A stretch of DNA of 64,000 nt from Candidatus Omnitrophota bacterium (GCA_029571225.1 JAKPTF010000035.1:12575-76574), one strand, 5' to 3'; positions 1 to 20,000 are shown, counted from the stretch's first letter. Made by a program: numbers and translations. The notes: generated from the sequence alone by a model not told the origin.

Positions 1-180
1 CTGCTTCAGCGCGGTCAAAGCGCCCGCATTCTCGAAGATCGTATTGGCGCCGATGACCAGCGCACCCTGGGTTTTTTGTTCGGCGCGCACCGCATTCACG
101 ACATTGCCGAAATACGTCGAAACCGCCTGGTACACGGCCTGATCCATCTCAAACAACGGCGCGGGCATATTCGTTGCAAC
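1..180 (-). repeat. Shared C-terminal domain, copy 1 (partial, continues beyond window), preceded by KDGG at 181-189
   Basis: ...GRVLKDGGVATNMPAPLFEMDQ...QGALVIGANTIFENAGALTALKQ matches GALVIGANTIFENAGSIAALTQ (PGI-like) and GAVILGANAIMENAGSIAALEK (FBA-PFK-GAPDH). The DNA at 25-65 is also close to 7795-7830. Confidence 0.8.
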
Positions 181-3100
181 ACCGCCGTCCTTAAGCACGC
201 GGCCGACCTGCCCAGCGGGCTTTTGGGTCGTATCGACCACAACCGGAGTTTGAACATTTTCGAACACGACGACTTTTCTGGACGACGACGGATCAGCTTT
301 GTTCGCAGTTTCCAGCTTAGCCTCTGCGATGCTCGCGGCGATCCCGCCGAACCTGAGCAGCTCCTCCTCGGTCGCAAGGCGGCGCCATTCGTCCCAGAAG
401 ATATCAACGCCTGCCCACGCGGCGCCGAGTTTGAGCGTGTCGTAGCTGATAAAGCTCAAGCCTGTGCCCAGGTCCTTGAAATATTCCAGATATTTGTCCA
501 GCTCGAGCGTGTTGGCAGGCGTGGCGATATCGACACCGACCTCAAGGCCGTCCTCGCCGGGTATGATCTTCAAGTCTTTGAGGATGTCACGCCAGGCGAT
601 CATGATCGCGCCTGCTTGCGTTCCCTTGACATGGGTGATCTGCAGACCGAAGTTCTTGCGGTCCGCAGGCGGCAATGAATCGCGCACGTTCTTGAACGCC
701 TTCAATGCCATGCGGTTGATCTGCCACATGTCGCCGATTGCCCGCGCAGCTCCGGCAATGCCGTAATCGGGATTCGGGTTGACCTGCTCCTCGAGGAATC
801 CTGCGCGCAGATCGCTGAACTGGACACAGTTGAGGCTATCTGTCTTGTGGATCACCAGCGCGCCGGGATGAGCCGCCAGGGCGCTGCGCATCGCTTCTTC
901 GAACTTTCCGGTGATGAACTGCTCGGCGGTCCGGCCGTTCAGAATCTTCGAGATGCCCGCGTTCAGGTCATCAAAGTACTGCCTGCGCAGGCCGCTGATC
1001 CAATCGTTGCCCAGCGACACCGCGCCTTTTTGCTTCGCGTCATCAAGGACATCAAGCATGAACTTTTTGATCACCGGCTCGCGCAGCGACTCGACTTTGG
1101 TTTCCAGCCTGGCAAGCAGCCATGCCCGCTTTTCGGCGCTGGTTTCCTGCATCACTTTTTCGACTTCATCAACGAGCTTGGCGACATAATCGTCAAACAT
1201 CTTGGCCTGCTCGGTCCAATCCTTCTTTTCGTATGCCAGGATAGCCCGGGGATGATACACCATGGCTGCGTACACGTCATTGGCGTTTTCGGCTACTGCC
1301 GCTTTGACCGGAACCTGCGGTTTCGTTTGCGGCACGGGAAGCCTGCGCAGCGGGGTTTTGATCTTGACGACATCGAGATTCCCTCTGTATATCTTCTTTG
1401 CGCCATAATCGACCGTCACGAACTTGCCTTCCAGAATGCCGCGCGAGGCGTTGATGCCTTTCGCTATTGCCTTGATACGCGTCGGAATGATTGATTTGTT
1501 CTTGTCGAAAACATCCCACCCGGTAAGGTCTGCGTCGGCGTCAACGATGATCGCCGGGACATACTGCAGATGCTGCCAGTCAATGCCTCTGCGTTTTAAT
1601 CCGGCAACGGAATTGTCCCAAGCCTTTTTCCACAGCTCAAGGATTTTCTTCCTGGCGTTCGGGTCCGTGATGCTGGCGTCAACCTGCTCCTTGAATTTCA
1701 TTTCGGGGACATCCAGGTTGGTCCAGACAAACAGGCCGTTATCCAGTTTCCGCATAAGCGGTTTCTGCCCCGGCGTGAGCGTCAGATATTCGAAAGCGCT
1801 TGCTCCGACTGCCGCGGATATCTCTTCCTTGGAAAAGGCGACCGGATTTCTGGTTATCACCGCGATCTTTTCGAAGAAGCGCGAAGTGGACCGGGCATCT
1901 TTCAGGCTTTGCAACTTGAGCGATTCCTTTTTGGCCAGAAGATCAGGGCCCTGCAGGCCTTTCAATGCGTCAGGAATCAGATCTTCGATGCCGTCCACGA
2001 AAACGATTTCGCCCTTGATAATGCCTTTTTTCTGCCGGACTTCACCCTGGCTCAGGTCGAACAGCGGATGTTTTTTTGCGTCATCAGGCAGGGATTTTAT
2101 TTCTTTCGTCGCAGCCATGACGTCGTACCGTGTCATGGACGCAGGCAGCCGGACTTTCATCATGCTGACGCCGAATGAATCCAGAAGCACCATGATCTTG
2201 CCCGCGGTTTCGTAATCGCCGCGGTTGACCAGGGCGGTGATCGCCTCGCCGCACAGACTTGTCGCAACCTCTTCATCTTCTGCGGATGCGACAACCGCTT
2301 CGATCAGCTGGAGCATAACGTCGGCGCCTTCATCGATGAGCGGAAGCCGCTTGGTCCCCTCGTCGTAAAAGTATCCGGCGCGTTTCATCTCGGGTATGGC
2401 CGCGATGGCTGCCGGATCCATGATCTTGAGTTTCATCTTCGGGTCCTCGCGGTCTCCCATGCCGGCAAGATGCGAATAGTCGTTGGTGCCGAACGAAAAG
2501 AACGTATGCTCAACGCCGTATTTCTTATATTTCCTGCCCATATCGGCCATTTTCTTTGCAAGCTGCGGCACATCCATGGCAGCGCTCGGAACCTCGATCA
2601 TGATGCCGATTTCTTTGGGCAATTTTCCTTTTTGCCTGGCCTTATACTCGATGATCGTATCCAGTGTTTCCAGCTCGCGGATCGAGCGTATGAAAACATA
2701 AAACCAGGCCTGGTTTTTGGTATTCTGATGCGCTTCGATGACCGAATCGAACAGAAAATCGAGCACAAGCTGGTTCCCGCCGAACTGTTCGTCAAACGCC
2801 TCGATCTCAAGCGAAGTTCCGCGCAGGCCGACAAGGGGATTGACCCCCGGCCATGAGAATATCTCGGAGCCGGGCATGCCGCGGATCTTATCCTGGGCAA
2901 AATCATACGCGCGGTTCTTGGCAACCTGGTCAGGCGCGATGGTAAATCCCATGAGGTTATAAAAATAGAGAAACTCCTTGCTCACGTACTCTTTGAAGTT
3001 TGCATACCCTTTTTCATTCAGTTTTTTATTAACCTCATCCAGTATCCAGGGATGATTCTGCAGGTCGGTCAGAATGTTGTAATTATAGTTGAACCTGCGC

Positions 3101-6100
3101 TGGAACTTGCCGTAGGCATATGAGAAAAACTCATAGTCGTCCTTGTTTAATCCTTCCACAAAATTAAGATCGGCTTTTTGCTGCGGAAACACCTGCGCCG
3201 CATCTATCTTGTTCAACCTAATATCAGACATCAGGTCAAAAACAGACAGAACGGACAGCATATCGTTTATCTCCGGCAGCCGGCCGTAGGTTTTTACGAA
3301 CGTAGCTGCGGCTGTCGGGTGTTTGCGCATATACTCAAACATTTCCCGGCTCATAGTATCGAGGAACTTTTCCGCGCCTGGCATGGACGTGCGTGCCCGG
3401 TCATTCGCGTATACCCGCTGCGGCATTGCAATTGTGCCGTCTGCGATCTGCTGAAGCAGGAAATGTCCGTAGCCCGCATACACATTGATGCCGATCTCCT
3501 CGCCCTTGAACTCGGCGCGCGTCAGGGCATTGCCTGCAGAGTCGGTCGCGAGCATGATGGGTGAATTCTGCTGGGCTGCGCTCGTGGCCGCGATAATCTG
3601 GCCAATTTTCGGATAGGGCATGTTATCCGGATCTCCAGGAATCAAAGGCGGCTCAACCGTAAACTCTACGTAATTGACCGGTATGCGCTTTTCCGGATCA
3701 GAATCCATTTCGTAGATATTGCCGTTATTTGCGTCAACAGTAAGCGCATCGCCGGTCTTGACAAGCTGACCTCCAAGCATGACCTTCCCGGCGCCCGTTA
3801 CCGCCGGAATACCCTGCTCGCGGCAGAAAATCGCAGCATGACACGTATCCCCGCCACGGATCGTGACGACGGAATTAACGAGGCGCATAATCGGATCGTG
3901 GTTCGGATCCGCTTCCAGAAGGTATAGGATGACAGGAAGCGGGTTATCAGGGCCGATATCGTTCAAGTCAAACCCGATCTCCTGTATGCGCCGGCGTTCC
4001 TCATCGGTGAAATCCCCTGATTTCAACCTGCGGATCTGGTCGGCATGCCAGGCGATATCCTTGTTCGGATCGAACACAAGCACGTATCCGTGCGTGGCGT
4101 TTTCTCCTTTCGTACCGCTGGCAATCGGTTTGGCATCCGAATGATCTTCGATCCATTTTTCATCGGCCTCTGTCCTGGCACGGACGACGTCCGTTTTAAG
4201 GTATTCCGCGGTATACGGCCGCGCCTGGACATTGTACAGCCGCATGGGCATTGCCTTGATGCGCGCCTTATCCTCCTCGCTTTTAACCTCAGCGCGCTCG
4301 CCCCTGGCATCCACCCCCCATATCCGGCCGTCTACGTCTATTTCGTAGATGCGCAGCGCCTTGTCTTCGGGCGCGGTCCGGTCGACTTCGATGGCGAATT
4401 CGATATCGCGTTTGTCACCGTAATATTCGACGATATTCCACCCCATGCGCGCGACATGCGCTGCCATTTCGTCGGCAAACGTAAAGGTGTTCTGATGGAC
4501 CTTGGTCGTCTTGAAATTCGACGTAAAGCTGTTATCGACGAGCGCCCGCATGAGATAGCTCAGATTTTCCATCTCCACGCCGGAAAGGCCGAGTTTATTG
4601 AGCACGGCAATCCGTTCGGGAAGTTCGAATTCCTTGTTCTCCCATGTCTCTTTGATCATGTAGATGAACGTATCGGCTTTCTTCATATCGCCGAGCTGCG
4701 CTGCCAGTTTATGCATACCGCGGGTTGTCTCTTTTTCCGCTTTGGTGACTTCCTCGAAGACGTTACGCACAACGCCCGATAATTCCGCTTCCTGAAAACC
4801 TTTTTCGCCCTTGCGATGAGCAATGAGAAATCGCTCCTTGATAAAATCCATGACCGCCGCTTCTGGTTCTTTGGCTTTGATCATGGCGGCAATGTCATTG
4901 GCAATACGCTGCACCTGAGCCTTTTTCTGTTTTTCGTCAATACCTTCTGCTCTCAAATATCTGGTACCGTATAATTTGGTAGCCAGGATACCGTTAATGC
5001 GCTTGCCAACCTCGTCATAGGCAATCGCTTCTTTGAGCGTGACGGCCAGCGTATTCAATTCTTTTTCGCTCATCTTGCCCGTGAAAGACTCGATCACATC
5101 CTCGACATTGCGCATCTGAATAAGTTTATTGCCCTTGTTCTTTTCGATCACGAACCAGTGTTCGCCGTCATACGTCGCCATGACATACTTGTCAGGGCTG
5201 ACCTTGCCGCCGACCACGTTTTCCCCGTATCCGAACGCGATCTCGAAGCTGGCTACGATCGCCTTGGTGCCGGTGATCAGTCCGGTCTTTTTATCCCTGA
5301 AAAGCAGAGAATCATCGTTCTTGAACCATGCGTTGTATAAGGACTGAGCTACGCCGGCCATTTTCGTTGCGGGATTGACGGTAAACAGGACGCCTGCAAG
5401 ATAACTCTTGACCATCTGCATGATGACGACGTCGATGCCGATCTGTTCAGGATGCGTCACCTCTTCGGATTTCTTTTTCAGCACCTTGAGTGCCTCAGCC
5501 AGCCACTCTTCCCGCTCGTGACTCAAAATTTCTTCCATCGCATTCATAAGATTTACGGACCCGGGATTCGGGCTCGATATTTGCGACATCTGGTCGGCAT
5601 ACGCGGCATATTCGGGCTTGTTGAGCTTCTTGGCATATTCCCGCAGTTTTGCCACAATGTCCCAATACACATCCTGCGAAAGCTTGCCTTGATAGTCGAT
5701 GGCTCCTGAAAACTGCAGGAATGTGGCGTCATCGCGGTAGCTGACTGCGCGGTCGGTAAAAAGGCTTGCGAAATCAGCGCGGGTCTTATCAAGGACCGCT
5801 TTGTCGCCTTTGACGTTCAAAAATGTATCCGATTGCCCTGCCTGCGAACCGGTGGATACCGGCAGCCAGGTCTTGACATGGATATCCTCTTTCGTGCCCG
5901 AGGAGCGCACGGCGACTGCCGCAGGAACGGCCTTGCCTGTGACCTGATACCTGATCATGCTCAACTGGTGGTACATCGAGATGATCTCATCCTTGATATC
6001 CGTCGGGATGGGAGCGTTCTTTATGGTTTCCCTTATCTCAGACGTAACCACATCCCGCTTCTGGTCGTCCATGGTGTCCAGCGTCTGAAGCTCATTGAAT

Positions 6101-7179: not shown

Positions 7180-7217
7180 TGTACTCCTCCCATGTTAGGA
7201 CGATTTTAAAATATCGG

Positions 7218-10073
7218 TTATATCTTGTTCAATGTATCTTCGAATATCACCTGGAGTCTGGCTATGTCATCGCTGACCGCAACCAGCGGAATATCCGATA
7301 TCTGAGCTGTTAATTCATTAAGGGACTTGGCATCCGCCTCGCTGATCATGCCCCTGTCCTTAAATGCCTGCACCATTTTGGCGAACTGCGCTCTCGTAGT
7401 GCCGACGTCGAATATAATGGCGATCGCCTTGGCGATTGCCAGCGGGACTGCGTTGATCTGTTTGACCGCCCCTGCCGTCCGCGCGGTCGAAACATGGACC
7501 ATCTGCAGCTCGCGATTATTGTTGAAGAATACGCTTGCATCGGGTACCTTGTACTCATCCTTGATATTATCGAGATCGAGATCCGAGTTGATGAGCACGA
7601 CTTTTCTGGGTGATATTTTGAGCTTCTCCATTGCCATGAGGGTTTCGCCCAGGCCCGTGTAGATTGTCGCTATTTTGTCAACGCCCAGCGCCTTTAACGC
7701 TGCGACGTCATCGTTATTCCTGGCCCATACGGCTATGGTGAGGACATTGGCCGCGTCGCGTGCCTGAGTGAGCGCTGCAATGCTGCCCGCGTTCTCGAAT
7801 ATGGTGTTGGCACCGATGACCAGCGCTCCTTCGATCCCTTCTATTTCGCGAACGCCCTTGATGATACCTTCATACATAAATGACGTTGCGCTGTACACGT
7901 TTCGGTCGGCGTCCTCGATGAACGCGGCAGCTTTACCAACAAGAGAATCGGCCGCATCCCGTACCCGTGCGAGGTCCAGATACGCCTTGACCTTGGAGAA
8001 AAAGTCCGCATACGCGCTTTCGACCTCAGGGGTCATCTGCTCGGCAACGAACAATACCGCTTTGCGCGGATCGAGCGAAGTGTACATCGCCTTGACCGTG
8101 CCGATGGTCTGGGCGAAAAGCAGGTTATCGTCGAATGGCACAGCCGGCTGGGGATTATTCAATGACGTAAAATATGTGGAAAAGAACATGTTCCTGCCGT
8201 CCTGGATGTTCTGCTGGTACGAATGGTTCTTATCCGGCCCTTCACCGAGTTTCGAAGGTATCCGGAGGCCGCGGGTAAATATGTCCCGGCGGGCGTCTTC
8301 AAGAATCCTCGTCATGGCAGGGCTCAGCTTGCCGTATGAAGACAACTCAGCGGCATTGAACTCGGTCTCGCCTGCTTTGGCCTTCTGTTCCAGAATCTGG
8401 GTGATTGCCGCATACACTGCAGCCGCGTTCTGCATATCCGCGCCCATTCTGCGCACCTGCGCGTCCAGAGCATCGGCAGTGATAATCCCTGACATGACAA
8501 GCGGCGCATAATACAGCGTGAATGCGTTTAAGTAATCGGCCGAAAACGGCGCCCATGCTGCCAGAACATCCTGTTTGGTTTGCCCGGAATCCTTCATGGC
8601 TTGAGCAATCGCCTTTGATTCTTTTTTGTATGCTTCGACGCCCGGTTGATTCACAAACCTGATATCCCATAAATAACCGATCGTCGCTACCATGCGCTGC
8701 AATCCGAGCATAACCCCGCCGATATCGGTAATATCCTTGATATTGATCTCCAGGGTCGGATACCCGTTTTCCTGCAGATACTTCCAGAATTCCCTGTTTG
8801 TCTCTGTTGCGCCGAGGTTAATCCTTAGGAAAACGCGGTCATTCTCATCAGCCGGCTTCAAAGACGCTTTCCACTGGTCATTGTCCGTTCCCAGGTCTTC
8901 TCCGTAAAAGACCGTGACGCCTTTTCCATCCTTGCCGAGCGATTCCTCGAATAGTTGTTCGGCCCACATAGGCAGAGCATTCAGTTTTTTCGGCACCAGC
9001 ATGGTCAGCTTGTCTTGTTTCAGATTTCTGGCGCGCACGAAGATCTCTGCCCCCATTTTCAGAAAATCGCCCTCACTGAGGCCCGAATTCATCCGCACGG
9101 CGCTCTTTAATATCGGCTCGATATCATCAGCCCCGGGCGTCAATGACCACGGAAGCATGAATATATTCGTGGTCGGCGCGGTAAACCGTCCCCCCACGTC
9201 CTTGAGATTATATACTTTGCCGGGGTTGACATCGTTCATCTGGATATATGCCCCCTGGCCTTTTTTGACATGGTCCCCATCCCACGGGCTGCCGGGATCG
9301 GTCACGTAAAACAAATGTTTTTCCGGGCCGGACACTGCGTATGCTTCGAATAATTTCCTGAAATATTTCTCGTGCTCAGTGGTTTCCTGGGTGGTCGCTG
9401 TCTTTGACATGAAAACCGCAACGGTTTTTTCCAAACCCGCCTTCATGTCATTACCCTCGGCACGCGCGATCTCATCGAGTATGGCTTTTATCGCGGCAGG
9501 ATCGGTGGTCCTCAGGCTATAGAACGGAGTACCTTCAGAATCGGGATCAAATGTTTGTTTGACCAGCTCCACGCTTAAGCCTGACCCGCCCATTCCACAG
9601 AACACCGCGTATTTAAAGCGGTTTACCAGCATTAAATTTTTAAGCCCTGTCGCCTGCCAGGGGACATATTCGTCAGCGCGCGCCAGATCGTCCAGAATAG
9701 CCTGGGCATTCCTCACGGTCCACCCAAGGCGAGAGGTAACGCCGTCTTCCTCATATCCCCACGCCGCGAAATCGCTGTCCGCCGACTCAAGCCGCTCGTT
9801 CATGCGCTCGGCCTTCAATCGTTGCATAAGCGTTTCGACTTCCCGTTTAACATTCACCGGCTTTCCGCCGTCTTTCAAAAGCGATAAGCGGCTGATGCCG
9901 AGATCCTGGCCAAGACTGTGTAAGCGCGAATTGCTCTGCTTTGCCGAAACCGGCCGGAGGTTATTGCCAGCAGCATAACCAGGAACAGCAATGCTATCGA
10001 CAAAAAAAGCCGCGCTCATGGCTACGGCTATTGCTTTACGAACGCGCCTTAAAGTTTCCGTCGAAGCAGGCAT
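7218..10073 (-). CDS. Glucose-6-phosphate isomerase (PGI/SIS family)-like protein with signal-like leader and shared C-terminal domain, 951 aa
   Basis: ORF track entry. GGGGGAGA sits upstream of the ATG. PGI motifs: FCGMGGSGLS, FMSKTATTQETTE, VGGRFTAPT, EESLGKDGKG, GPDKNHSYQQNIQDG. The N-terminus RKAIAVAMSAAFFVDSIAVPGYAAG is signal-like. Confidence 0.88.
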   Translation of the reverse strand: MPASTETLRRVRKAIAVAMSAAFFVDSIAVPGYAAGNNLRPVSAKQSNSRLHSLGQDLGISRLSLLKDGGKPVNVKREVETLMQRLKAERMNERLESADSDFAAWGYEEDGVTSRLGWTVRNAQAILDDLARADEYVPWQATGLKNLMLVNRFKYAVFCGMGGSGLSVELVKQTFDPDSEGTPFYSLRTTDPAAIKAILDEIARAEGNDMKAGLEKTVAVFMSKTATTQETTEHEKYFRKLFEAYAVSGPEKHLFYVTDPGSPWDGDHVKKGQGAYIQMNDVNPGKVYNLKDVGGRFTAPTTNIFMLPWSLTPGADDIEPILKSAVRMNSGLSEGDFLKMGAEIFVRARNLKQDKLTMLVPKKLNALPMWAEQLFEESLGKDGKGVTVFYGEDLGTDNDQWKASLKPADENDRVFLRINLGATETNREFWKYLQENGYPTLEINIKDITDIGGVMLGLQRMVATIGYLWDIRFVNQPGVEAYKKESKAIAQAMKDSGQTKQDVLAAWAPFSADYLNAFTLYYAPLVMSGIITADALDAQVRRMGADMQNAAAVYAAITQILEQKAKAGETEFNAAELSSYGKLSPAMTRILEDARRDIFTRGLRIPSKLGEGPDKNHSYQQNIQDGRNMFFSTYFTSLNNPQPAVPFDDNLLFAQTIGTVKAMYTSLDPRKAVLFVAEQMTPEVESAYADFFSKVKAYLDLARVRDAADSLVGKAAAFIEDADRNVYSATSFMYEGIIKGVREIEGIEGALVIGANTIFENAGSIAALTQARDAANVLTIAVWARNNDDVAALKALGVDKIATIYTGLGETLMAMEKLKISPRKVVLINSDLDLDNIKDEYKVPDASVFFNNNRELQMVHVSTARTAGAVKQINAVPLAIAKAIAIIFDVGTTRAQFAKMVQAFKDRGMISEADAKSLNELTAQISDIPLVAVSDDIARLQVIFEDTLNKI
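7221..7931 (-). repeat. Shared C-terminal domain, copy 2 (about 237 aa, ends VIFEDTLNKI)
   Basis: GALVIGANTIFENAGSIAAL...VWARNNDD...IATIYTGL...DLDNIKDEYKVPDASVFF...INAVPLAIAKAIAIIF...GMISEADAKSL...IPLVAVSDDIARLQVIFEDTLNKI. It is collinear with the 1726-aa protein tail. Confidence 0.85.
7974..9776 (-). other. PGI-like catalytic region
   Basis: Covers aa about 100-700 of the 951-aa protein. The PGI motifs listed for the CDS occur in canonical order. Confidence 0.75.
9864..10073 (-). other. N-terminal leader: signal-like segment + NLRP + KDGG
   Basis: MPASTETLRRVRKAIAVAMSAAFFVDSIAVPGYAAGNNLRPVSAK...SRLSLLKDGG. DGG codons at 9864-9872 were checked in the DNA. Confidence 0.6.
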
Positions 10074-10120
10074 TATCTCCCCCTTTTTATCGGCTTAGAT
10101 GGCATTACGATATATGCATG

Positions 10121-10153
10121 CCTGCGCGGCAGGCATCATGCCTGCCGCGCAGG
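10121..10153. repeat. GC-rich perfect inverted repeat (16+1+16 nt) in the intergenic gap between the FBA-PFK-GAPDH and PGI-like genes
   Basis: CCTGCGCGGCAGGCAT-C-ATGCCTGCCGCGCAGG. It lies 10 nt downstream of the TAA (10163-10165) on the transcribed strand. No U-tract follows it. Confidence 0.6.
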
Positions 10154-10162
10154 TAATTGATA

Positions 10163-13100
10163 TTAAATCTTGTTGAGCGTATCTTCGTACACGGTCTGCA
10201 TTGCTGCGACTTCGTCGCTGACAGACACCAGCGGCACATCGGCCAGCTGCGCGGCGAGCTGCGTGATGTTAAGCAGGTCTTCCGAGCTGATGAGGCCTTT
10301 GTTCATATACGCAGCGGCCATGTTCTGGAGCTGCTGTCTGACCGTATCCTCGGTATTGAAGATCATGGCGAGTGCCTTTGCCATGACAAGCGGCATCGCA
10401 TTGATGCGTTTCTGCGTGACGGCCGCGCGGGATCCGGTTACGCGCACGTTCTTCACCTTTGCCTTTTCGAAGAACAGCGACGCATCGGATACGGTAAACT
10501 CGGCTTCGATATTGTCCATATCGGCATCCGCGCTGATGAGCGCGATCCTGGCCTGCGGGATCTTTGCCGCGGTCACTGCCTCAAGTGCCGCCTTCAAACC
10601 AACATGGATCGTCGCGATCCGGCCGACCCCTAATGCCTCAAGGGTCAGCTTAGCCGCGTCGTCCTTTGCCCATACGCTGAAGTCCACAACGCCTGCCGCA
10701 TCTTTTGCTTTCTCGAGCGCCGCGATGCTGCCGGCGTTTTCCATGATGGCGTTGGCGCCGAGGATAACCGCGCCCCTGGCGTTCTGGACATCGCTGATTG
10801 ATTTGACGAGATCATCGAAGTTCAACGCGCCTGCATTGTACACGCTTGCATCGCTCTTAAGCACAGTCTCGATGAGATCGGCGATATCGACCATTTCGGG
10901 AAGCACCGTCTCTGTTTGCGCAAGCGCAACGGAGGCGCCTCCGTCCTTTGCATAGTCGCCATTGACGAGGGCGCGCATTCTCACGCCGTCCACCATCCAC
11001 GGTGACCATTTGGAGATCATCTGGTTGGGAGCGGCTGACTGGTTGTCATACAGGCCTTTGATGATCACGGTCTTCTTGTTTTCCAGCACCTGGATCAGCA
11101 CGCTGTCGATGATTGATATATTGTTCCAGCCGACGACCGCATTGACATCGAGCGGGCCAGGGTTGACCTCTGGATCGCCCTCATAGAATTTCACCACTCC
11201 GTCCGACTTGTTGAGCGCGAAATCCTTCAAAGCGGCACGGACCTCCTCCACGGTAGTTTCTCTTTTCAGGTTCAGGGTCACTTCCCACAGGGACGCAGAA
11301 ACCGTATCCGTGCGCACAGCGGTTATCTCGAACTTGCCTTTGAGCTGCGGTATCATCTTGAACAGGTTCTTCTTGGCCCCGGTGGAGGCGGGAATGATAT
11401 TGTCGCGGATCGAATCTCCGCGGGCAATATCAAGCGGGTCGCGCGCCCTCTTGCTCTTCATGGGGAAAGTCTCGTTCGAATCGGTCTCCGAATGGATGGT
11501 CAGGCCGGTCCCGTTGACGATACCGAACTCGTCCCACATGGCCTTGATGACCGAGATCATGGCGTTGGACGTGCAACTGAGCGTGTCAACGATCTTGACA
11601 TCCGGCCCGATCTGTTTGCGCATGGCAGAATACAGCGCTTCTTTGAACACGGCGCTGACGGATTTATCGACCGTGTCGGCGCTGACGCCTTCCTGAAGGA
11701 ACTTTTCCTTGAGCATATTCTTCACCGCGTCGGTGTTGACCGGGGAGGCGGCGACAACGGGGAATCCGGCTTCCATGAACTCCTTGAAAATGCGCGGCTG
11801 GACCTTTTCGTCAGTCGGGCCGTAATACGATACCACATCCGGCTTGACTCCGAGTGTCCTGACGGTATCGAGCACCTGCTGATTCGTCGTTTCTGGGCCG
11901 AAATACGGAATCTTTATATCGGGCCTTCCTATATTTTTGTCGCCCGGCACGAAGATGAAATTGACCTCGACGCCGTCAACGACCCTGCGCTCGTCCTTGA
12001 GCACGCGCATACCTTTCACCTGGTACGGCCCGAACGGGCCGTTGTACCTGCTGTTCATGCGCACGAATTCCTCTGCGCTGGCTTCTTTGCCGCCCTTCAT
12101 GGACTTGAGAGCCGCCAGATTGACGCCCGGCTCCCAGTTCTTATAGAAAAGCGCAAACGCTCCGGCGCGGAAAATAAGCGCGTTCGCCGCGATGACCACG
12201 ATGTTCTGGTCCTGCAATGCCAGATCAAGCTTCTTGGGCGTATTGCTTTTCGCAAAAACGCCCATTCCGGCAAGGATCTTGACCTGCGCAAGCTGCCGGT
12301 CATCGATACGGTGCAGGATCCTTCTGATCGACTGCATGACTTCCTGGTTATCGCCGCTTTCCTTCTTGATTGTATTCAATTTCCACAGAACAGCCTTCAT
12401 TTCATCAAGGCCAAGGGACAGTATCTCACCCGGCTTGAGCTGATACAAACGCTTGACCGCAGCCTGATACCGCAGTTGATTCATAGCTGCCTTACCAAGC
12501 TTGAGGTTTGTTTTTTCATTGACAAGCGCCATATTCGCCAGCAGGTATTCATCGCGGTGGGCGCCTTTGTAATCCAGCTGCCTGCCGCCGAGTTCCTGAT
12601 CGAACGGTATGGACTTGATCTGGCCCTTATAGGCGTAGAGCAGCTGATTGTTCTGAAGGTCGGCGATTTTCTCAACAGCCGCTTTGCCGAGCATGCCGGT
12701 CATTTCCTCGTCAAGTTTGGAAATATCAGCCGAGCGGAAAAGATAATCGGCCTTGCCTGCGAGGCTGATGTCGATTTTATCTTCCTTGAGCGCCGTCTTT
12801 ACCACGGCCGCGACGATTAAACCGGCGTTCTCGAGTTTGGGATGACCGAAATCGTCAACGCCGGCTTTCATTGATTTAATGAACGCCGCTTTGGCAACCG
12901 GATCGCTGTTGAACGCCGCCAGCAGCAGCTTGACATCGGCATTGCGGGGCTTGACGACTTCAAGGTCTCCGTTGTCGTTCAGCCTGAAGCCGTCGGTCGC
13001 GATGCTGGCTCCTTCAGCTACGACGACGACGCCGTATTTGTTCTGCTTGTAATACGCTCGCAGATCATCCACCAGCTTCTTCAGATCCACCATCTCTTCG

Positions 13101-15313
13101 GGGATCAGGGTACGGGTAGCACCGACATTGGCGCCGATGCGCGCCGCAACAAACCCTGCGCTTCTGCCGAACACTTCGCCGATGAGAATCCTTTTTGTCG
13201 ATATGGCGTCGATTTTTCCGGCTTCGAAGGCGTCCGTAGCGGCCCGGGTAAAGCTGTCAAAACCATAGGTCTGCGCATCCGGTTCTGGAAGCGCGATATC
13301 ATTGTCCATGGTCTTGGGCAGGCCGATAAAAAGGAATTCAGGATGCTCTTTCTGCAGCTTTGCCGTAACGCCATTGGTATCGTCGCCGCCCAGGGTAACA
13401 AGGCCGTCCAGATCGAGCTTTTTGATATTCTCCCAGACTTTCTGCGCGTCACCTTCCTTTTTATACGGATTGGTGCGGCTTGTCTTTATGAATGTGCCGC
13501 CTTTTTTCTCCCACTTTTCGGCTTCCGAAAGGCGTATCGCCCTGGCCTGCGCCACAAGATCGTCTTTGATGAGGCCGGCCCATCCTTCGGGGATAGCAAC
13601 GATCTCGATACCGTTCTTCAGACCTTCGCGCACCATCGCTGCAAGGACCTTGTTATGCCCTGACGCGGGTCCGCCGCCGGTTAACACTCCAATCCTCTTG
13701 GGTCCGACCAACTGTGAAAATTTGACCCCCTGGCGGTCGGTAACGACCTGCTCCTTATACCTGATACCGGTGATAAATTCCACGGCATCGGCAACGGTCG
13801 AGTTCTCTTTGCCGCCGATCTCGCCGACTTCGGCTTCCAACCCGGCGTCCTCGGGAATAAAACCGGCAAGAAATGCGCTCACAAGCACGTTCAAGCGCGT
13901 GGGCATGAACGACGCGTCAAGCGCAAAGACGGCATGATCTTCTGCAACCTGCTTCTTTACCTGAAGCATGGCCTTGTTGACTGCCTTCATCGCTTTGCCC
14001 ACGCCGGGCGCTGCGTTGAATGCTTCGTCCTTTAAGGCCGCATTGAACATGGCTTCTCTTTTCGCGATGTCTTTTTCAGCCAGTATCCTCTCGAACAGCT
14101 CCGCAACCGCATTCTGCGCCCCCGTGTCCTTCAGGAATGCTTCATCGACTTTGACGGTGACGTGGTCCGACTTGTTCATATAATCGCGGAAACCCTCTTT
14201 CATCGCGGCTGCTTTGGTGTTTGCCGCAAACCTGGCGACGTTATCGAGGCTGTATCCGCCCGGCCAGGTGTAATCGAGTTCGCTCATGGCTTGCTGGAAC
14301 ACGACCACACTGCCGGTCTTTTTTGCCGCGCGTATGATGCCGGGCAGGCTGAGCGGATGGCGTATATTGCAGCACATGATCGCCTTATCCGTTCCTTCGA
14401 GCGCCTTGAACACATGATAACCCTTGAGCGACGAAAAATCGGACGGGTATTCCAGGCCGTTGGCCTGATAATAATCCCTGACCATCTGCGCCGTGCCGTC
14501 AGAGCCAAAACCGATCATGTGCTCGGTCGCCGATTTCTCGGTCGCGGCGTCGATCTTTTCGATAAGGCGCGCGGGAAGCCCCAGAAGCTCCTGATGGAAA
14601 TCGCCGATGACCATTTTCAGCTCTTTGCCCAGAAGCTTGTCGAGGTCTTTGTCTTTTCCTGCGACATACACGCTGTTCTTGGCTTCATCGCTGCGGGGAG
14701 AAACCTTGTATTTCTTTTCCACGTCCGCGGTCTTGGCGATCGTCGCGTCGATCATGCGGTTGACGATTGATTTGGCCGTCGCGTCTCCGTTCTGCGCTTC
14801 GGCAACAAGCGTTTCCCAGATGATATTCTGCCAGTTCGTGCCGACGTGAGCGGCGCTGATGCCGACATTGCGCAAGGCCTGGAGGTTCTCAATGGGAGTA
14901 CCGGTAACGCCGTGCTGCACGATCTTGACGCCGTAGGGTTTGATCGCTTCGTAAATGGCGCCGGTCATCTTCAGGTTCATCTGCGTCTTGATGAGATTGC
15001 CTTCGGCATCGTAGTTGTTGCCGTGGGCGGTGCCGTTATTGATCGCAAGACGCTGGATCATGCGCGGCAGGTAATCAGCAAGCCCCTTGCCTTTGCTCAC
15101 CACGATGAATTTCCCGGTCGCCAGCGAACCGCCGTCCTTGCCGAGAAACTCGCTTTTCATGGCCAGAGGCTGATTGGTATGGTTGGCCGATCTGCCCCGG
15201 AGGTGGTCAAATGAGACGACGCCTGCCATCGAGGCGGTGTTGAACGTGAATATGCCGATAATAAGCAATGCCGTTATCCTGAATAACACCCGAGCGAACC
15301 GTGAACCGTTCAT
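10163..15313 (-). CDS. Triple-enzyme fusion: class II fructose-bisphosphate aldolase (permuted) + phosphofructokinase (PPi-type motifs) + GAPDH, with leader and shared C-terminal domain
   Basis: The ORF track gives 10163..15343 (1726 aa). I prefer the ATG at 15311-15313 (MNGSRFARVLF...) because AAGGAG lies about 8 nt upstream and it removes the overlap with the upstream stop (15330-15332). Domain motifs are listed in the sub-features. Confidence 0.88.
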   Translation of the reverse strand: MNGSRFARVLFRITALLIIGIFTFNTASMAGVVSFDHLRGRSANHTNQPLAMKSEFLGKDGGSLATGKFIVVSKGKGLADYLPRMIQRLAINNGTAHGNNYDAEGNLIKTQMNLKMTGAIYEAIKPYGVKIVQHGVTGTPIENLQALRNVGISAAHVGTNWQNIIWETLVAEAQNGDATAKSIVNRMIDATIAKTADVEKKYKVSPRSDEAKNSVYVAGKDKDLDKLLGKELKMVIGDFHQELLGLPARLIEKIDAATEKSATEHMIGFGSDGTAQMVRDYYQANGLEYPSDFSSLKGYHVFKALEGTDKAIMCCNIRHPLSLPGIIRAAKKTGSVVVFQQAMSELDYTWPGGYSLDNVARFAANTKAAAMKEGFRDYMNKSDHVTVKVDEAFLKDTGAQNAVAELFERILAEKDIAKREAMFNAALKDEAFNAAPGVGKAMKAVNKAMLQVKKQVAEDHAVFALDASFMPTRLNVLVSAFLAGFIPEDAGLEAEVGEIGGKENSTVADAVEFITGIRYKEQVVTDRQGVKFSQLVGPKRIGVLTGGGPASGHNKVLAAMVREGLKNGIEIVAIPEGWAGLIKDDLVAQARAIRLSEAEKWEKKGGTFIKTSRTNPYKKEGDAQKVWENIKKLDLDGLVTLGGDDTNGVTAKLQKEHPEFLFIGLPKTMDNDIALPEPDAQTYGFDSFTRAATDAFEAGKIDAISTKRILIGEVFGRSAGFVAARIGANVGATRTLIPEEMVDLKKLVDDLRAYYKQNKYGVVVVAEGASIATDGFRLNDNGDLEVVKPRNADVKLLLAAFNSDPVAKAAFIKSMKAGVDDFGHPKLENAGLIVAAVVKTALKEDKIDISLAGKADYLFRSADISKLDEEMTGMLGKAAVEKIADLQNNQLLYAYKGQIKSIPFDQELGGRQLDYKGAHRDEYLLANMALVNEKTNLKLGKAAMNQLRYQAAVKRLYQLKPGEILSLGLDEMKAVLWKLNTIKKESGDNQEVMQSIRRILHRIDDRQLAQVKILAGMGVFAKSNTPKKLDLALQDQNIVVIAANALIFRAGAFALFYKNWEPGVNLAALKSMKGGKEASAEEFVRMNSRYNGPFGPYQVKGMRVLKDERRVVDGVEVNFIFVPGDKNIGRPDIKIPYFGPETTNQQVLDTVRTLGVKPDVVSYYGPTDEKVQPRIFKEFMEAGFPVVAASPVNTDAVKNMLKEKFLQEGVSADTVDKSVSAVFKEALYSAMRKQIGPDVKIVDTLSCTSNAMISVIKAMWDEFGIVNGTGLTIHSETDSNETFPMKSKRARDPLDIARGDSIRDNIIPASTGAKKNLFKMIPQLKGKFEITAVRTDTVSASLWEVTLNLKRETTVEEVRAALKDFALNKSDGVVKFYEGDPEVNPGPLDVNAVVGWNNISIIDSVLIQVLENKKTVIIKGLYDNQSAAPNQMISKWSPWMVDGVRMRALVNGDYAKDGGASVALAQTETVLPEMVDIADLIETVLKSDASVYNAGALNFDDLVKSISDVQNARGAVILGANAIMENAGSIAALEKAKDAAGVVDFSVWAKDDAAKLTLEALGVGRIATIHVGLKAALEAVTAAKIPQARIALISADADMDNIEAEFTVSDASLFFEKAKVKNVRVTGSRAAVTQKRINAMPLVMAKALAMIFNTEDTVRQQLQNMAAAYMNKGLISSEDLLNITQLAAQLADVPLVSVSDEVAAMQTVYEDTLNKI
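10166..10906 (-). repeat. Shared C-terminal domain, copy 3 (about 247 aa, ends TVYEDTLNKI), preceded by KDGG at 10937-10945
   Basis: GAVILGANAIMENAGSIAAL...VWAKDDA...IATIHVGL...DMDNIEAEFTVSDASLFF...INAMPLVMAKALAMIF...GLISSEDLLNI...VPLVSVSDEVAAMQTVYEDTLNKI. Confidence 0.85.
10994..12286 (-). other. GAPDH-like domain (divergent NAD-binding half + catalytic half)
   Basis: VDTLSCTSNAMISVIKAMWDEFGIVNGTGLTIHSETDSNE (catalytic Cys and His context) and IIPASTGAKKNLFKMIPQLKGKFEITAVRTDTVSASLWEVTLNL. The N-terminal half is only weakly Rossmann-like (VKILAGMGVFAKS). Confidence 0.72.
12644..13702 (-). other. Phosphofructokinase domain (GGDD / PKTMDND motifs typical of PPi-dependent PFKs)
   Basis: KRIGVLTGGGPASGHNKV, TSRTNPYK, LVTLGGDDTNGV, IGLPKTMDNDI, GRSAGFVA. 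Confidence 0.8.
13754..14446 (-). other. Class II FBA, N-terminal two-thirds (placed second)
   Basis: KGYHVFKALEGTDKAIMCCNIRHPLSLPGIIRAAKKTGSVVVFQQ corresponds to the FbaA N-terminus (...FALPAVNCVGTDSINAVLETAAKVKAPVIVQFS). KSDH corresponds to HTDH. GLEAEVGEIGGKENS corresponds to TLEIELGCTGGEEDG. Confidence 0.7.
14744..15121 (-). other. Class II FBA, C-terminal third (placed first in the polypeptide)
   Basis: GTAHGNNY corresponds to E. coli FbaA GNVHGVYK. VQHGVTGTP corresponds to VFHGGSGST. AAHVGTNWQNIIWETL corresponds to KMNIDTDTQWATWEGVL. Confidence 0.7.
15128..15313 (-). other. N-terminal leader: signal-like segment + HLRG + KDGG
   Basis: MNGSRFARVLFRITALLIIGIFTFNTASMAGVVSFDHLRGRSANHTNQPLAMKSEFLGKDGG. 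DGG codons at 15128-15136 were checked in the DNA. Confidence 0.6.
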
Positions 15314-16981: not shown

Positions 16982-17010
16982 AAGATACCATAGAACACCA
17001 TTTCTGTCAA
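16982..17010 (-). promoter_or_regulatory. Sigma70-like promoter candidate (TTGACA - 17 nt - TATCTT)
   Basis: The minus strand has TTGACA at 17005-17010, a 17-nt spacer and TATCTT at 16982-16987. It sits in the AT-rich 217-nt gap after the giant gene. Confidence 0.3.
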
Positions 17011-17076: not shown

Positions 17077-20000
17077 TTAAATATTTGTCGAGAAACAGCC
17101 GTCTATCCATACAACAAACTCGATCGCTGTTTTTTCAAGGACATTGTTGTTAAACGCTCCCGCAAGAAAGGCTTTGATGCCGCCGTCTTTGTTCTCAGGC
17201 GCATTGTCGTTCTTATTGTCTTTCCCACCCTTATCATATTTCACATAAAATCCTGAAGCAGTTCTCTGAGTCTTCTGCGCATCCGTGCACGCAGCCCGCA
17301 TAGTATCAATAGCCGCGTCTATATTGCCTGCTCCCTGAACCAACGACCGCACGTGATCGGTCTCATACCCGCACCGGCACCAAAGATGCGCAAGCTGTGA
17401 TTTTTGTTCGCAGGTCGCTTTAAGGCCCAGAAGATAACAAATATCCTCTTCGCTGAACACGTAGCTGCCGGTATACTCTGATCGCCGACAGCACAGCTCG
17501 ATCAAAAAACTTGTTGTTTCGGCATCGAGGACAATAAGGCTTGCTTTGCTCATGTTCCTGATCTGAGTCTTATTGAACAACGGTTTATTGCCTCTATAGA
17601 TAAGCGAAAGCAGGAATGCGTTTCGCTCCCGCCGAAGCCAGTACGCGATGCTCTTCAGAGGCCCGGCATTCATTCCTTTGCGAGATTCCATGAATTCGCC
17701 AAGCCTCACATACGGGCTTATATTATCGGGCACCAGGCCTGCTTCCACCAGCGCCGTAACAAGCTTGCCCATGCGCGTATTGCAAAGTTCAGCCAGCCGT
17801 CTGCTGTCCATCCGCAGGTCCTTAAGGAAAAGGAACTCGGGGTCCCCATACTCTCCTGCCGGATTGTTTATCCGGCAACACAAATTGAACCCCTGCTTTC
17901 TCCAGAAACCGGTCAAGCCTGCCAGATTATTCTGCGAAACGAGCACGGACGCAAAATCGCTCCCCATGGCCCTGCATACCGGTTCCATGAATTGTTTATA
18001 CAAAAATGTGCCAATGCCTTTCCCACGCAGGGCCGGGTCGAGCATAAGCTCGATCTGTGCGCGCCGCTGGGTATCTATTTTGGTAAAGTGCATCATTGCC
18101 AGCGGCATCTCCGTTGGTTGCGCGGTTCGGTCTCGCAGGAATACGGAATACGCAAAACCATCCCGTGATGTCACGACTGCCCGGAGCGAAGCGATCCCGG
18201 TCAGCTTTCGCAGCTGTCGTATCGGCAGTTCCGATTCGATGAAGGTCTTGACGGGAATTGCGCCTCCGTCCGAACGGCGCACCGCGTATCCAGCCCCGGA
18301 CCGCCGGATATTGACAGCAGGGTCACGCCGCGGATTGAACACGTAATAATATTCGCTCCTGTCCTCGCAGGGCAGGGACAATTCCCGGCTACGATAATCG
18401 TCGCTGTCAAGCGCCTCCTTTGCGTCTGCGGTAAAGCAGGCCCCTCCTGCAGTGAATACGTACGTACGGCTATCCATTCTGACTTTCTTCGACTCGCTCA
18501 AGGCGCTTTTTCTTACCAGATACTTGAGATAAATCCGCCTCTCCAGAAGCTGTTCGTACAGACACTGTTCCCCGTGCAGAGTCGCATCGGGATAACTTCT
18601 GCAAAAAGCCAATGCCTCCGCATAGATACGGCAGCTGGTGCTCAGGGTAAAACCTGCCTCAGGCGAATAATCGAACAGTATCTGTAATGCGCTGCACGGC
18701 CACCTGAAGAGGTATCGGTCAAGCGGGATCTCGTCGCAGGCCCTGCGCCCTGACGGACAGAACGCAAGGGCAATGTCTTTCCTGCCATGCGCATGTGTAG
18801 CTCCGAATTTGCGCTGCAACAATGTATTGATTTCAGGGAATCCGCGCTCTGACCGGGCAAAGCAGCACGCCCCGTCTGCGCATCTGATCCTGCCTGCCGT
18901 TTCCCGGGAAAAACGAAGTTCTATACCGTGATTTCCGCCGTCTCTGCCTCTTTTCCCCCCACCAGGATCGTCCGGAAGAACCTCAGATTCGGCCTTTGAA
19001 CGGGTATAATGCACCACGACGGCTGCACAGAATGCCGCTGTCAATATCGCGCTCAAAATGAAAACCGTATTGGACGGCAGCGCAATCAATCCCATGTCCT
19101 CAATGCCCGAAAGGAACAAATAAACCAGGAGGCCGGCGGTAATCAGTTTGCTTACCCATCTCAGGCATGTTGAGATCATCGGATTGTGCTGCAGCGTAAG
19201 CTGGCAAAGGGATTTTGATACGCATACGTCCAGCACAATGACCAGTAAGACCACATTGATTATGAAAGCCGCAAAGGTAATCCCCGTGCCGAACCGGCTG
19301 AGCAGCAGCGGCGTTATTCCGAGCAATCCGGGGCCCGCGATCAAAGGAAAAGAAACCGGGATTACGCAGAACCATTTATAGGGAACGGCCTCGAAATATC
19401 TGCACACATGGAGGCGGGGCATGAAGAAATCAAGACAGAATATTCCCAGGACGATGACGCAGGCGATCTTCAATATCCCCAATTGGAACAGGGACAGGGA
19501 AAGCCCGAGCGCCATGAAGGCAATCACAAAAACGATTGATATCGGCATCGACAGCAACAACAACCTCCTGATGCTGCCGCGCGTCAAATTAAGATGCTGG
19601 GCAATCGCACGGAAAACGATCGCGGTTCCGATGATATTGATCGCCATGCCGACTACAAATACCGCCATGGCCAACTGGTAAAGCAGGCCCATCATGCCTC
19701 CGTCCTGCTGCGCCTCAAGTCGCCGGAGCATATCGATCGACCGAGCCTGCGCATAAAGGCCTTTGCCTCTGAGTACCTCCCGGTAAAAAACCAGTATTTC
19801 AATCCACGTCCGGCCGGAAAAGTAAAGTTTCTGGTTGCCGAACCTGACCGGATGGCCGTTATCTATCAGGAAAAGCCCTGTTGATTCTTCAACGACCTTA
19901 ATGACTTCTTCCGGCGAGACCGATAGAGAGACCTCCTTGATGAGCCGGCGGTAGAATAACATCCGTTCCTGCTGGGATACGAGCCGCTTCGACCATGGAG

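Follow-up and report, generated by a model that had tools for sequence, protein, structure and literature searches.

Glycolytic enzymes encoded as fusion proteins with a shared leader and C-terminal module beside a giant gene of Candidatus Omnitrophota

A stretch of 64,000 nucleotides from a Candidatus Omnitrophota bacterium (GCA_029571225.1, JAKPTF010000035.1:12575-76574; this whole stretch is called the window here) carries, immediately downstream of the gene for a giant multi-domain membrane protein, a cluster of genes in which glycolytic enzymes are fused to one another and to common end pieces. We read this locus, with a probability of roughly 0.6, as a glycolysis cluster of tagged, catalytically intact multi-enzyme proteins that are predicted to be co-localised near the giant protein by a shared N-terminal leader and a shared C-terminal module (C-module). 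Three fusion proteins, P1, P2 and P3, are apparently active and cover phosphoglucose isomerase (PGI), phosphofructokinase (PFK), fructose-bisphosphate aldolase (FBA), glyceraldehyde-3-phosphate dehydrogenase (GAPDH) and the conversion of phosphoenolpyruvate (PEP) to pyruvate, to which synteny would add triosephosphate isomerase (TIM), phosphoglycerate kinase (PGK) and enolase. The common leader and C-module would gather these enzymes at one site, probably the membrane beside the giant protein, where they might assemble into a metabolon and where fusion could channel fructose bisphosphate and the triose phosphates. A pyrophosphate (PPi)-dependent PFK would save one ATP per hexose, and further energy would be conserved by a reversible dikinase of the PEP synthase (PEPS) type if it ran glycolytically, turning PEP + AMP + Pi into pyruvate + ATP; both would raise the ATP yield, and such a pathway would suit an energy-limited anaerobe. 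A preliminary description of this DNA had already placed PGI, PFK, FBA, GAPDH and a dikinase in three adjacent co-directional genes, and the Pfam and NCBIfam domains found here bear it out.

P3 consists of a leader, a permuted class II FBA, a PFK of the PPi type, a GAPDH and the C-module, and its Pfam matches are to F_bP_aldolase (E 1e-10), PFK (2e-54) and Gp_dh_C (1e-20). The FBA-PFK-GAPDH architecture recurs in 11 further full-length proteins from independent samples, and residue conservation was judged on the alignment of these 12 orthologues (67-97% identity). Invariant among them are H107, H144, D393-H394 and E503/E505 of the FBA, the GGDD, Val659, K677 and PKTMDND of the PFK, and C1257 and H1284 of the GAPDH. 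Alignment to FBA chains located the zinc ligands and catalytic residues of the FBA (HGxxY with H107, QHGVTG with H144, D393-H394 and EAEVGEIGG), and P3 thus has the three histidines that bind zinc in a class II enzyme as well as its catalytic Asp and Glu. What departs from the canonical (beta/alpha)8 barrel is the order of its halves, the C-half (aa 77-300) standing before the N-half (aa 302-545). The former aligns to FBA chain residues 195-252 and to residues 971-1175 of the paralogue P0013, the latter to FBA chain residues 102-157 and to P0013 718-965. Judged by this order, the aldolase barrel of P3 is a circular permutation. Two paralogues from the same phylum at 52-55% identity, P0013 and P0024, have the canonical order, the C-half following the N-half in P0013; in two others, P0016 and P0021, some 450 aa separate the halves, and both proteins also have a glpX FBPase domain (PF03320). 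Since P0013 consists of two tandem canonical FBA copies, a duplication-deletion route to the permutation fits.

The PFK domain of P3 matched PFKs of known structure at E 1e-31, and D680 of its PKTMDND, itself invariant, aligns with Asp127, the catalytic base of Escherichia coli PFK. Enzymes using PPi are told by GGDD in place of GGDG, by the Lys in PKTxDxD and by a bulky, non-glycine residue at the position where a glycine would admit the adenine of ATP (PMC12203962). P3 shows all three, with GGDD, K677 and Val659, the last standing four positions beyond the second Asp of the GGDD, and by these signature residues its PFK is predicted to be of the PPi type. The GGDD (aa 652) and PKTMDND (aa 676) had been pointed out in the preliminary description, and Val659 completes the signature. 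The domain falls in the short 'mixed' group (TIGR02483), not in the long PPi-PFK clade, and scores below the NCBIfam cut-offs (185.7 vs 253 for PRK03202; 166.2 vs 550 for the Thermotogales PPi-PFK). The GAPDH that follows has the two-domain fold of type I enzymes and the counterparts of their catalytic Cys149 and His176.

P2 is laid out as a leader (aa 14-35), a KDGG (67-70), the PGI (~74-503), a region matching no family and the C-module (722-951). It matched the Pfam PGI family (PF00342) at E 8e-6 and the PGI half of an NCBIfam transaldolase/PGI model at E 6.5e-41 over aa 74-503, with a score below the curated cut-offs. Among its motifs GMGGSG, SKTATTQET, DVGGRF, ESLGK and QPGVEAYKK, the last two align with the catalytic motifs of PGI; it has both the homology and the ExxGK and QPGVExxK of the SIS-type enzymes, and the catalytic His was not located.

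P1, which is 2571 aa long in a relative at 97% identity, runs from a leader and RDGG/KDGG through a PEPS-type dikinase with long inserts and a second PEP-binding-like region to a KDGG and the start of the C-module. Its Pfam matches are to PPDK_N (4.5e-52), PEP-utilizers (3e-14) and PEP-utilizers_C (5e-12). NCBIfam PEP synthase models matched at E 1e-80 and 6e-77 in five stretches, with a score of 271.6 vs a cut-off of 598 in the presence of the long inserts, and the best matches in the PDB are PEP synthases. An identity as pyruvate phosphate dikinase (PPDK) was rejected, the model for that enzyme (TIGR01828) matching at E 9e-19 through the swivel domain alone. The enzyme given in the preliminary description as PPDK or PEPS-type is therefore of the latter kind, and, P1 being PEPS-like and not PPDK-like, the 'PPi-flavoured' glycolysis proposed there applies to the PFK only. 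P1 has the ATP-grasp and PEP-binding domains, the phospho-histidine of the swivel domain and, by eye, the Cys of PEP synthases. The swivel His1119 (TCHAAI) aligns to the PEP synthase 9dae and is invariant in 4 orthologues, as is the LCGEA with Cys1648, which lies past the Pfam/PDB matches ending at aa 1651/1582. Its assignment as the catalytic CGE motif is less direct, having been made by eye rather than by alignment to a reference enzyme. The protein is 66-97% identical to its orthologues over its entire length, inserts included. Loss of catalytic residues, with which the preliminary description had linked non-metabolic roles, was looked for in the enzymes of P1 and P3, and the residues proved invariant in the 12 orthologues of P3 and the 4 of P1. 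As side observations on P1, the second PEP-binding-like region reads ISYDT where GTND would stand, and the ~240 residues after the leader have no assigned domain.

Every long open reading frame (ORF) of the window lies on the minus strand, so that the genes read from right to left, and plus-strand ORFs are antisense shadows. Spacers of 23-89 nt, or overlap, give the genes an operon-like packing, and Shine-Dalgarno sites precede P3, P2 and P1, only at the called starts; position 15313, where the region singled out in the preliminary description ended, is the ATG of P3, with AAGGAG before it. The closest proteins are annotated Candidatus Omnitrophica/Omnitrophota, these genes also stand together on a Logan contig (SRR31357138_5287, 99 kb) at 97% identity, and the gene order was found again in 7 distinct related loci, namely giant ORF, P4-like gene, FBA-PFK-GAPDH, PGI (in part of them) and PEPS-like gene, with TIM-PGK-enolase next in four of them. 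PGK, PGM and enolase had been described as missing from the window, and no such Pfam domain was detected in it. The gene directly after the dikinase in L002/L009, L006, L007 and L008, four of the related loci, encodes a fusion of TIM, PGK and enolase (1511-2624 aa), and L007, at 72% identity, has the gene order of the window, PGI included. Because of this synteny in four loci and the collinearity of L007, the gene just past the left edge is most likely a TIM-PGK-enolase fusion. The TIM barrels in these fusions and in the giant ORF (61000-61740) are permuted too, the N-[WL]-K strand (beta1, Lys12) coming after strand 8.

Leader and C-module tie the three proteins together. The N-termini of P1-P3 share a basic stretch, a hydrophobic stretch ending in small residues, an xLRP motif and a KDGG. 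The C-module (~225-230 aa) is 44% identical between P2 and P3 (E 2e-54), and P1 starts the same module at the window edge. Of 1.84 billion representative proteins, only 106 matched a profile of it, in every case at the extreme C-terminus and in proteins of up to 2543 aa; a word-indexed search with the same profile gave 2. Among full-length carriers, 56 of 69 have a hydrophobic N-terminus, and those 56 show the xLR motif in 53 cases and a DGG at aa 25-115 in 37. A Pfam scan of the partner domains covered 34 carriers and found PPDK_N (8), PFK (7), GAPDH (5), FBA (5), F420_oxidored (5), PGK (4), enolase (3), cupin GPI (3), TIM (2) and GatZ (2), with glpX, aldose epimerase, UDPGP, DHH and HEAT_2 once each; all enzyme domains identified in this way belong to sugar or central-carbon metabolism. 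The C-module itself had no match in Pfam or NCBIfam, and its nearest fold is that of the haloacid dehalogenase (HAD) superfamily, with only ~110-120 of 230 residues aligning at 8-17% identity. Unlike HAD phosphatases, it lacks the DxD nucleophile motif, its first strand ending in G-A-N; a role as an active HAD phosphatase was rejected on this ground, and the module is HAD-like and non-catalytic.

Several points weigh against reading the locus as an ordinary cytoplasmic glycolysis made of intact, tagged enzymes. Every family score of the P1-P3 enzymes lies under the NCBIfam curated cut-offs, as is expected because the enzymes are diverged and carry large inserts. The canonical NAD loop of GAPDH (GxGxxG, GINGFGRIG) is absent from P3, which in a by-eye alignment reads IAANALIFRAG there, invariant in the orthologues, so that ANALIFRAG stands for the glycine-rich loop; Pfam Gp_dh_N found no match in P3. 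The TIM-PGK-enolase fusions of the relatives gave no match to the C-module profile, and neither PGM nor a hexose kinase could be placed. Leaders that are cleavable Sec signals would export the enzymes away from ATP, PPi and NAD, and published topology predictions put the metabolic domains of Omnitrophota giants outside the membrane. Finally, P1 and P3 have a KDGG between enzyme core and C-module, where cleavage would detach the module.

This last motif lies at the centre of an alternative that we consider tenable though on balance unlikely, namely that [KRQ]DGG is a double-glycine site for C39-type peptidases and that the giant ORF and the fusions are precursors, fused only as genes, from which a protease strips leader and C-module and frees the separate domains. 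West-Roberts et al. (2023; bioRxiv 10.1101/2023.11.21.568195) describe Omnitrophota 'Archaeovorins' with TIM, GPI, FBA, FBPase, PGM/PMM and pyruvate dikinase domains inside giant proteins, propose post-translational cleavage at points given as unknown, and report C39 (double-glycine) peptidase domains in the giants; given these C39 domains, DGG would be an attractive candidate for a processing site. The distribution of the motif is in keeping with it. DGG is the most over-represented tripeptide in the window proteins (43 observed vs 6.0 expected, z = 15), KDGG occurs 15 times vs 0.34 expected, and [KRQ]DGG is ~45-fold over-represented and placed at domain boundaries. The giant ORF holds 24 [KRQ]DGG motifs, which bracket its Pfam domains: the AAA ring (aa 4140-6121) has motifs on either side at 4125 and 6455, CoaE at 10267 and 10605 and ROK at 12244 and 13182, the GNAT domain is likewise bracketed, CDF starts after 13881 and M50 follows 2269. 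Permuted TIM domains start directly after [KR]DGG both in the fusions of L006-L009 and in the giant ORF, there after the RDGG at aa 751. About ten of the giant-ORF sites have a hydrophobic segment within ~55 residues downstream. A helical junction repeat of ~65 aa, with a consensus of about K.LY..Q..PEW..YS..QK..FL..LA....L....W..LNKALDP......L.P.KDGG, occurs in eight copies between aa 3180 and 10272, each ending in [KRQ]DGG; several copies have a transmembrane segment after them. KDGG parts the leader from the enzymes in P1-P3; P1 and P3 have a further one between enzymes and C-module, in P3 within a low-confidence linker (structure-model residues 434-446, pLDDT <50). Among the 12 P3 orthologues, D70, G71 and G72 of the leader motif are invariant and K69 nearly so, and DGG is present in relatives.

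A signal at the nucleotide level (an internal Shine-Dalgarno site, or a Chi- or KOPS-like octamer) was considered for the motif and rejected, GACGGCGG being strand- and frame-locked: it was observed 28 times vs 3.7 expected, 27 of the 28 in the coding frame and none on the opposite strand. The codons of the motif (GAC in 27 of 30, GGC in 23 of 30) are not special to it either, since outside the motif Asp before Gly is GAC in 68 of 81 cases and the first Gly of Gly-Gly is GGC in 47 of 67. The preference is thus a general context effect of Asp-Gly and Gly-Gly, and the DGG signal therefore lies at the peptide level.

Several points stand against the processing of precursors. GG junctions are abundant in the window proteins; no C39 or other cysteine peptidase domain was found in the 15,640 aa of the giant ORF or in P1-P4, the N-terminus of the giant lying off-window. 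P3 has no DGG between FBA, PFK and GAPDH, so that the trio would stay fused even with cleavage, and P2 has none ahead of its C-module. As in the double-glycine leaders that the C39 peptidase domains of bacteriocin exporters cut, Gly-Gly ends a leader-like helical segment right before the cargo. Unlike in those leaders, the motif is internal dozens of times, has Lys/Arg/Gln-Asp before it, and in its N-terminal copies follows a hydrophobic, signal-like segment; by eye, the hydrophobic positions before GG are also unlike the classical -4/-7/-12/-15 pattern. It could just as well be a hinge, or be left over from ancestral junctions of leader and cargo.

Export is another reading, and in our judgement a rather unlikely one. 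The leaders would be true Sec signal peptides, and the fusions, exported as the outer parts of the giant protein are, would process sugar phosphates of lysed or attached prey or moonlight as adhesins instead of running the cell's own glycolysis. The form of the leaders would allow it, with a basic n-region, a hydrophobic core of 15-20 residues and an A-x-A-like end (SYA, AFA, AYA), and the cluster always adjoins the giant gene. The glycolytic domains of Archaeovorins are predicted to be extracellular by West-Roberts et al. (2023), and a 2026 preprint (bioRxiv 10.64898/2026.06.07.730766) puts the multi-enzyme content of a giant with signal peptide and transmembrane segments on the outer face. 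However, PPi or ATP, NAD and AMP, on which PFK, GAPDH, PGK and the dikinase depend, are not expected outside the cytoplasm, and strong purifying selection acts on the catalytic residues of enzymes that together make up a whole pathway, which fits a housekeeping flux. In the same 2026 survey all 176 of 176 genomes have GAPDH, PGK and enolase, and the fusions may be those matches. The leader may also be a signal anchor that leaves the enzymes cytoplasmic.

A bolder combination, which we regard as quite unlikely, would make leader, [KRQ]DGG and C-module one dedicated sorting and processing system, by which a whole glycolytic pathway and also the giant's cassettes reach a single site outside the cytoplasm or bounded by a membrane, with the giant ORF cleaved at DGG. 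If it were true, the site could be, for example, a predator-prey interface, the giant ORF would be a true bacterial polyprotein, and the system would be the bacterial equivalent of a glycosome, with tagged megaproteins as its building blocks.

The preliminary description went further than the three adjacent genes and let the giant ORF supply TIM and glucokinase; read so, the 64-kb block would hold seven working steps of a PPi-dependent pathway including PPDK. We find this very unlikely. The homology that it noted is present, a TIM-like module (E 8e-42), described at 60937-61737, and a ROK-like one (E 8e-11), described at 24484-25557, both being recovered in shorter bounds (Table 1). The TIM-like module also matches TIMs at E 2.5e-34; it has retained GHPER, the motif of His95, and, within the permuted N-L-K strand, the Lys. 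Its catalytic Glu165, however, is Leu and the phosphate-gripping loops 6-8 are degenerate, with YLPLWVKQQQ for YEPIWAIGTG (WVKQQQ for the lid WAIGTG), YGRYV for YGGSV and VARFAM for GGASL. In the relatives, all four TIM-PGK-enolase fusions have retained these motifs, with the Glu in WEPxxNIGTG / YEPRWxI, and only the giant copy has lost it; by these residues the module probably lacks TIM activity. The ROK-like module, the best solved relative of which is an N-acetylglucosamine (GlcNAc) kinase at a weak E of 7e-6, keeps ELGH and reads SVGGS for DxGGT, so that the Asp of the ATP motif is lost; it has no CxCGxxGC zinc motif and nothing that ties it to glucose. The two modules were accordingly rejected as the missing steps and are, by their residues, diverged paralogues. 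The three genes hold five activities, and the steps described as missing most likely lie in the next gene past the left edge instead of inside the giant ORF. For pathway reconstruction this is a caution: a domain match in a giant ORF, as here with TIM and ROK, may come from a degenerate paralogue, which does not count as a pathway step.

That mis-assembly, overlooked stop codons or another genetic code has produced the fusions is a negligible prospect and was rejected, as nothing specific speaks for it beyond a metagenome-like window and an exact look-up of P3 that returned no match, whereas the same architectures and gene order recur in independent samples, on JGI, ENA, NCBI and Logan contigs at 42-97% identity, with conserved linker regions and with Shine-Dalgarno sites confined to the called starts.

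Fused glycolytic enzymes are known from the PGK-TIM of Thermotoga maritima and the TPI-GAPDH of stramenopile mitochondria, where fusion is thought to aid channelling or co-regulation. The proteins here likewise join consecutive or neighbouring pathway enzymes on one polypeptide; they differ in covering a near-whole pathway, in having three enzymes per chain, in being 2-3 times as long as the sum of their domains, and in their permuted barrels and shared tags. One terminal tag on many pathway enzymes, serving co-localisation, is found in the peroxisomal targeting signals of kinetoplastid glycosomes and in the dockerin-cohesin pairs of cellulosomes. The tag here is unlike either, being neither a short peptide nor a dockerin but a HAD-like domain of 225 aa, for which no receptor or scaffold partner was found. 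As in the PPi glycolysis of Clostridium thermocellum, which combines PPi-PFK with PPDK (PMC8863071), a dikinase is encoded and no recognisable pyruvate kinase is present in the cluster; unlike there, the dikinase is PEP-synthase-like, and the enzymes are fused, with leaders and a lineage-specific C-module.

The giant ORF, 23,525 aa long in the relative at 97% identity, resembles the published Omnitrophota giants in phylum, in its length of well over 10 kAA, in its many transmembrane helices (~45 hydrophobic segments) and in its tiling of unrelated enzyme families, with Pfam matches to TIM, M50, AAA_5 (six), TPR repeats, DUF1152, CoaE, ROK, CDF, HAD and GNAT. It is a general mosaic and not a store of glycolytic steps. 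The 2026 preprint has a giant class named 'multi-enzyme metabolic cluster' with ROK, HAD and GNAT as recurrent modules. Enzyme fusion in Omnitrophota giants is thus already published and the theme not new in itself; the papers deal with giants of at least 10 kAA, and what this locus has in addition is an operon of glycolytic fusions of 1-2.6 kAA beside the giant. The searched text of both giant-protein papers makes no mention of such a fusion operon, a shared leader and C-module, the DGG motif or barrel permutations, and nothing in the literature searched described the tagged glycolytic operon, DGG as a junction motif or the permuted barrels.

For the making, sorting and use of Omnitrophota giants, whose cleavage points and localisation published work gives as unknown, this locus offers concrete handles: the DGG motif for proteomics, the compact and well-folding C-module for self-assembly or scaffold binding, and the leaders for export. 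It also presents a near-complete central pathway encoded as three-enzyme chains, and two independent (beta/alpha)8 permutations, of aldolase and TIM, that bear on protein evolution and on the design of channelled pathways.

Table 1. Positions of genes, domains and other elements in the window, counted from its first letter.
Feature	Position	Strand	Remarks
Giant ORF	17080-63999	-	15,640 aa; N-terminus past right window edge
TIM-like module	61144-61740	-	giant aa 754-952; Pfam E 8e-42
ROK-like module	24709-25533	-	giant aa 12823-13097; Pfam E 8e-11
P4 ORF	15330-16991	-	553 aa as listed; start probably further in
P4	15330-16916	-	conserved; ~510-530 aa in orthologues; signal-like N-terminus
P3 ORF	10163-15343	-	gene 10163-15313; 1716 aa from ATG 15313
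P3 hydrophobic leader	15224-15298	-	Kyte-Doolittle scan; signal-peptide or signal-anchor-like
P3 KDGG, leader to first enzyme domain	15128-15139	-	aa 69-72
P3 class II FBA, C-half of barrel	14444-15115	-	aa ~77-300; Zn ligands H107, H144; placed first
P3 class II FBA, N-half of barrel	13709-14440	-	aa ~302-545; D393-H394, EAEVGEIGG 503-511; placed second
P3 PFK domain	12569-13702	-	aa ~548-925; GGDD 652-655, Val659, PKTMDND 676-682
P3 GAPDH, both domains	10964-12226	-	aa ~1040-1460; Cys1257, His1284
P3 KDGG, GAPDH to C-module linker	10937-10948	-	aa 1466-1469
P3 C-terminal module	10166-10855	-	aa 1497-1726
Hairpin, P3-P2 spacer	10119-10155	-	perfect 15-bp, GC-rich; -41.5 kcal/mol, z -5.3
P2 gene	7218-10073	-	951 aa
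P2 C-module	7221-7910	-	aa 722-951
P1 ORF	1-7194	-	ATG 7179; 2393 aa within window; C-terminus past left edge
P1 nucleotide-binding domain (ATP-grasp, PPDK_N)	4993-6249	-	aa ~316-734; PEP synthase 9dae E 6.6e-35
P1 swivel phospho-histidine domain	3706-3936	-	GGDTCHAAIFCRE, His1119
P1 PEP/pyruvate-binding domain	2215-2913	-	NPLVGLRG, MIEVPSAA, FSFGTNDYSH
P1 second PEP-binding-like region, diverged	424-975	-	aa ~2074-2257; 2ols residues 535-714, E 7e-6
P1 KDGG and first ~50 aa of C-module	1-192	-	KDGG aa 2335-2338; cut by window edge

Further parts of the giant ORF are a ring of six tandem AAA_5 domains with midasin-type lids (window ~45600-51700, minus strand; aa ~4140-6121; E 5e-157, dynein/midasin-like) and an M50 site-2-protease-like domain at giant aa 2321-2477. 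Its C-terminal third (17080-33000, minus strand) has domains of the housekeeping type, namely a CoaE dephospho-CoA kinase (E 6e-24), a genuine HAD phosphatase (4e-22), a GNAT domain and a CDF cation-efflux transporter (E 4e-19) with RDGG-HEHHH just before it.

Across the related loci, P4 keeps its position between the giant ORF and the FBA-PFK-GAPDH gene. It found no match in Pfam, NCBIfam or the PDB sequences. Its invariant motifs are IQIQDAHCNYEAQKNLA, MVEGGSGD and ITGGFHTSGLSRL, and the motif pair may recall TraB/GumN/ChaN/Tiki-type proteins, some of which are proteases. A promoter-like site at 16982-17010 (minus strand; TTGACA, 17 nt, TATCTT, with an upstream TG; 10/12 matches) sits in the AT-richer spacer from the stop codon of the giant ORF to P4, so that a separate promoter may serve the enzyme genes. 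No tRNAs or Rfam families were found in the window. The hairpin in the spacer between P3 and P2 has no U-tract and may be an element of mRNA processing or stability, or an attenuator within the operon. Strong hairpins also occur in the equivalent spacer of L001, L002, L006 and L007; the sequence differs in L002 and L006, and in L001 base changes leave most of the pairing preserved.

A scan of the GTDB species representatives with the P1 sequence found no match, and one with the P1 alignment found a single match, L005 (JBLMZF010000057.1), a 19-kb contig from a MAG labelled Deltaproteobacteria. It carries a P4-like gene, two fusion genes and a PEPS-like gene in this order, together with C-modules, and either this contig is mis-binned or the cluster occurs outside Omnitrophota.

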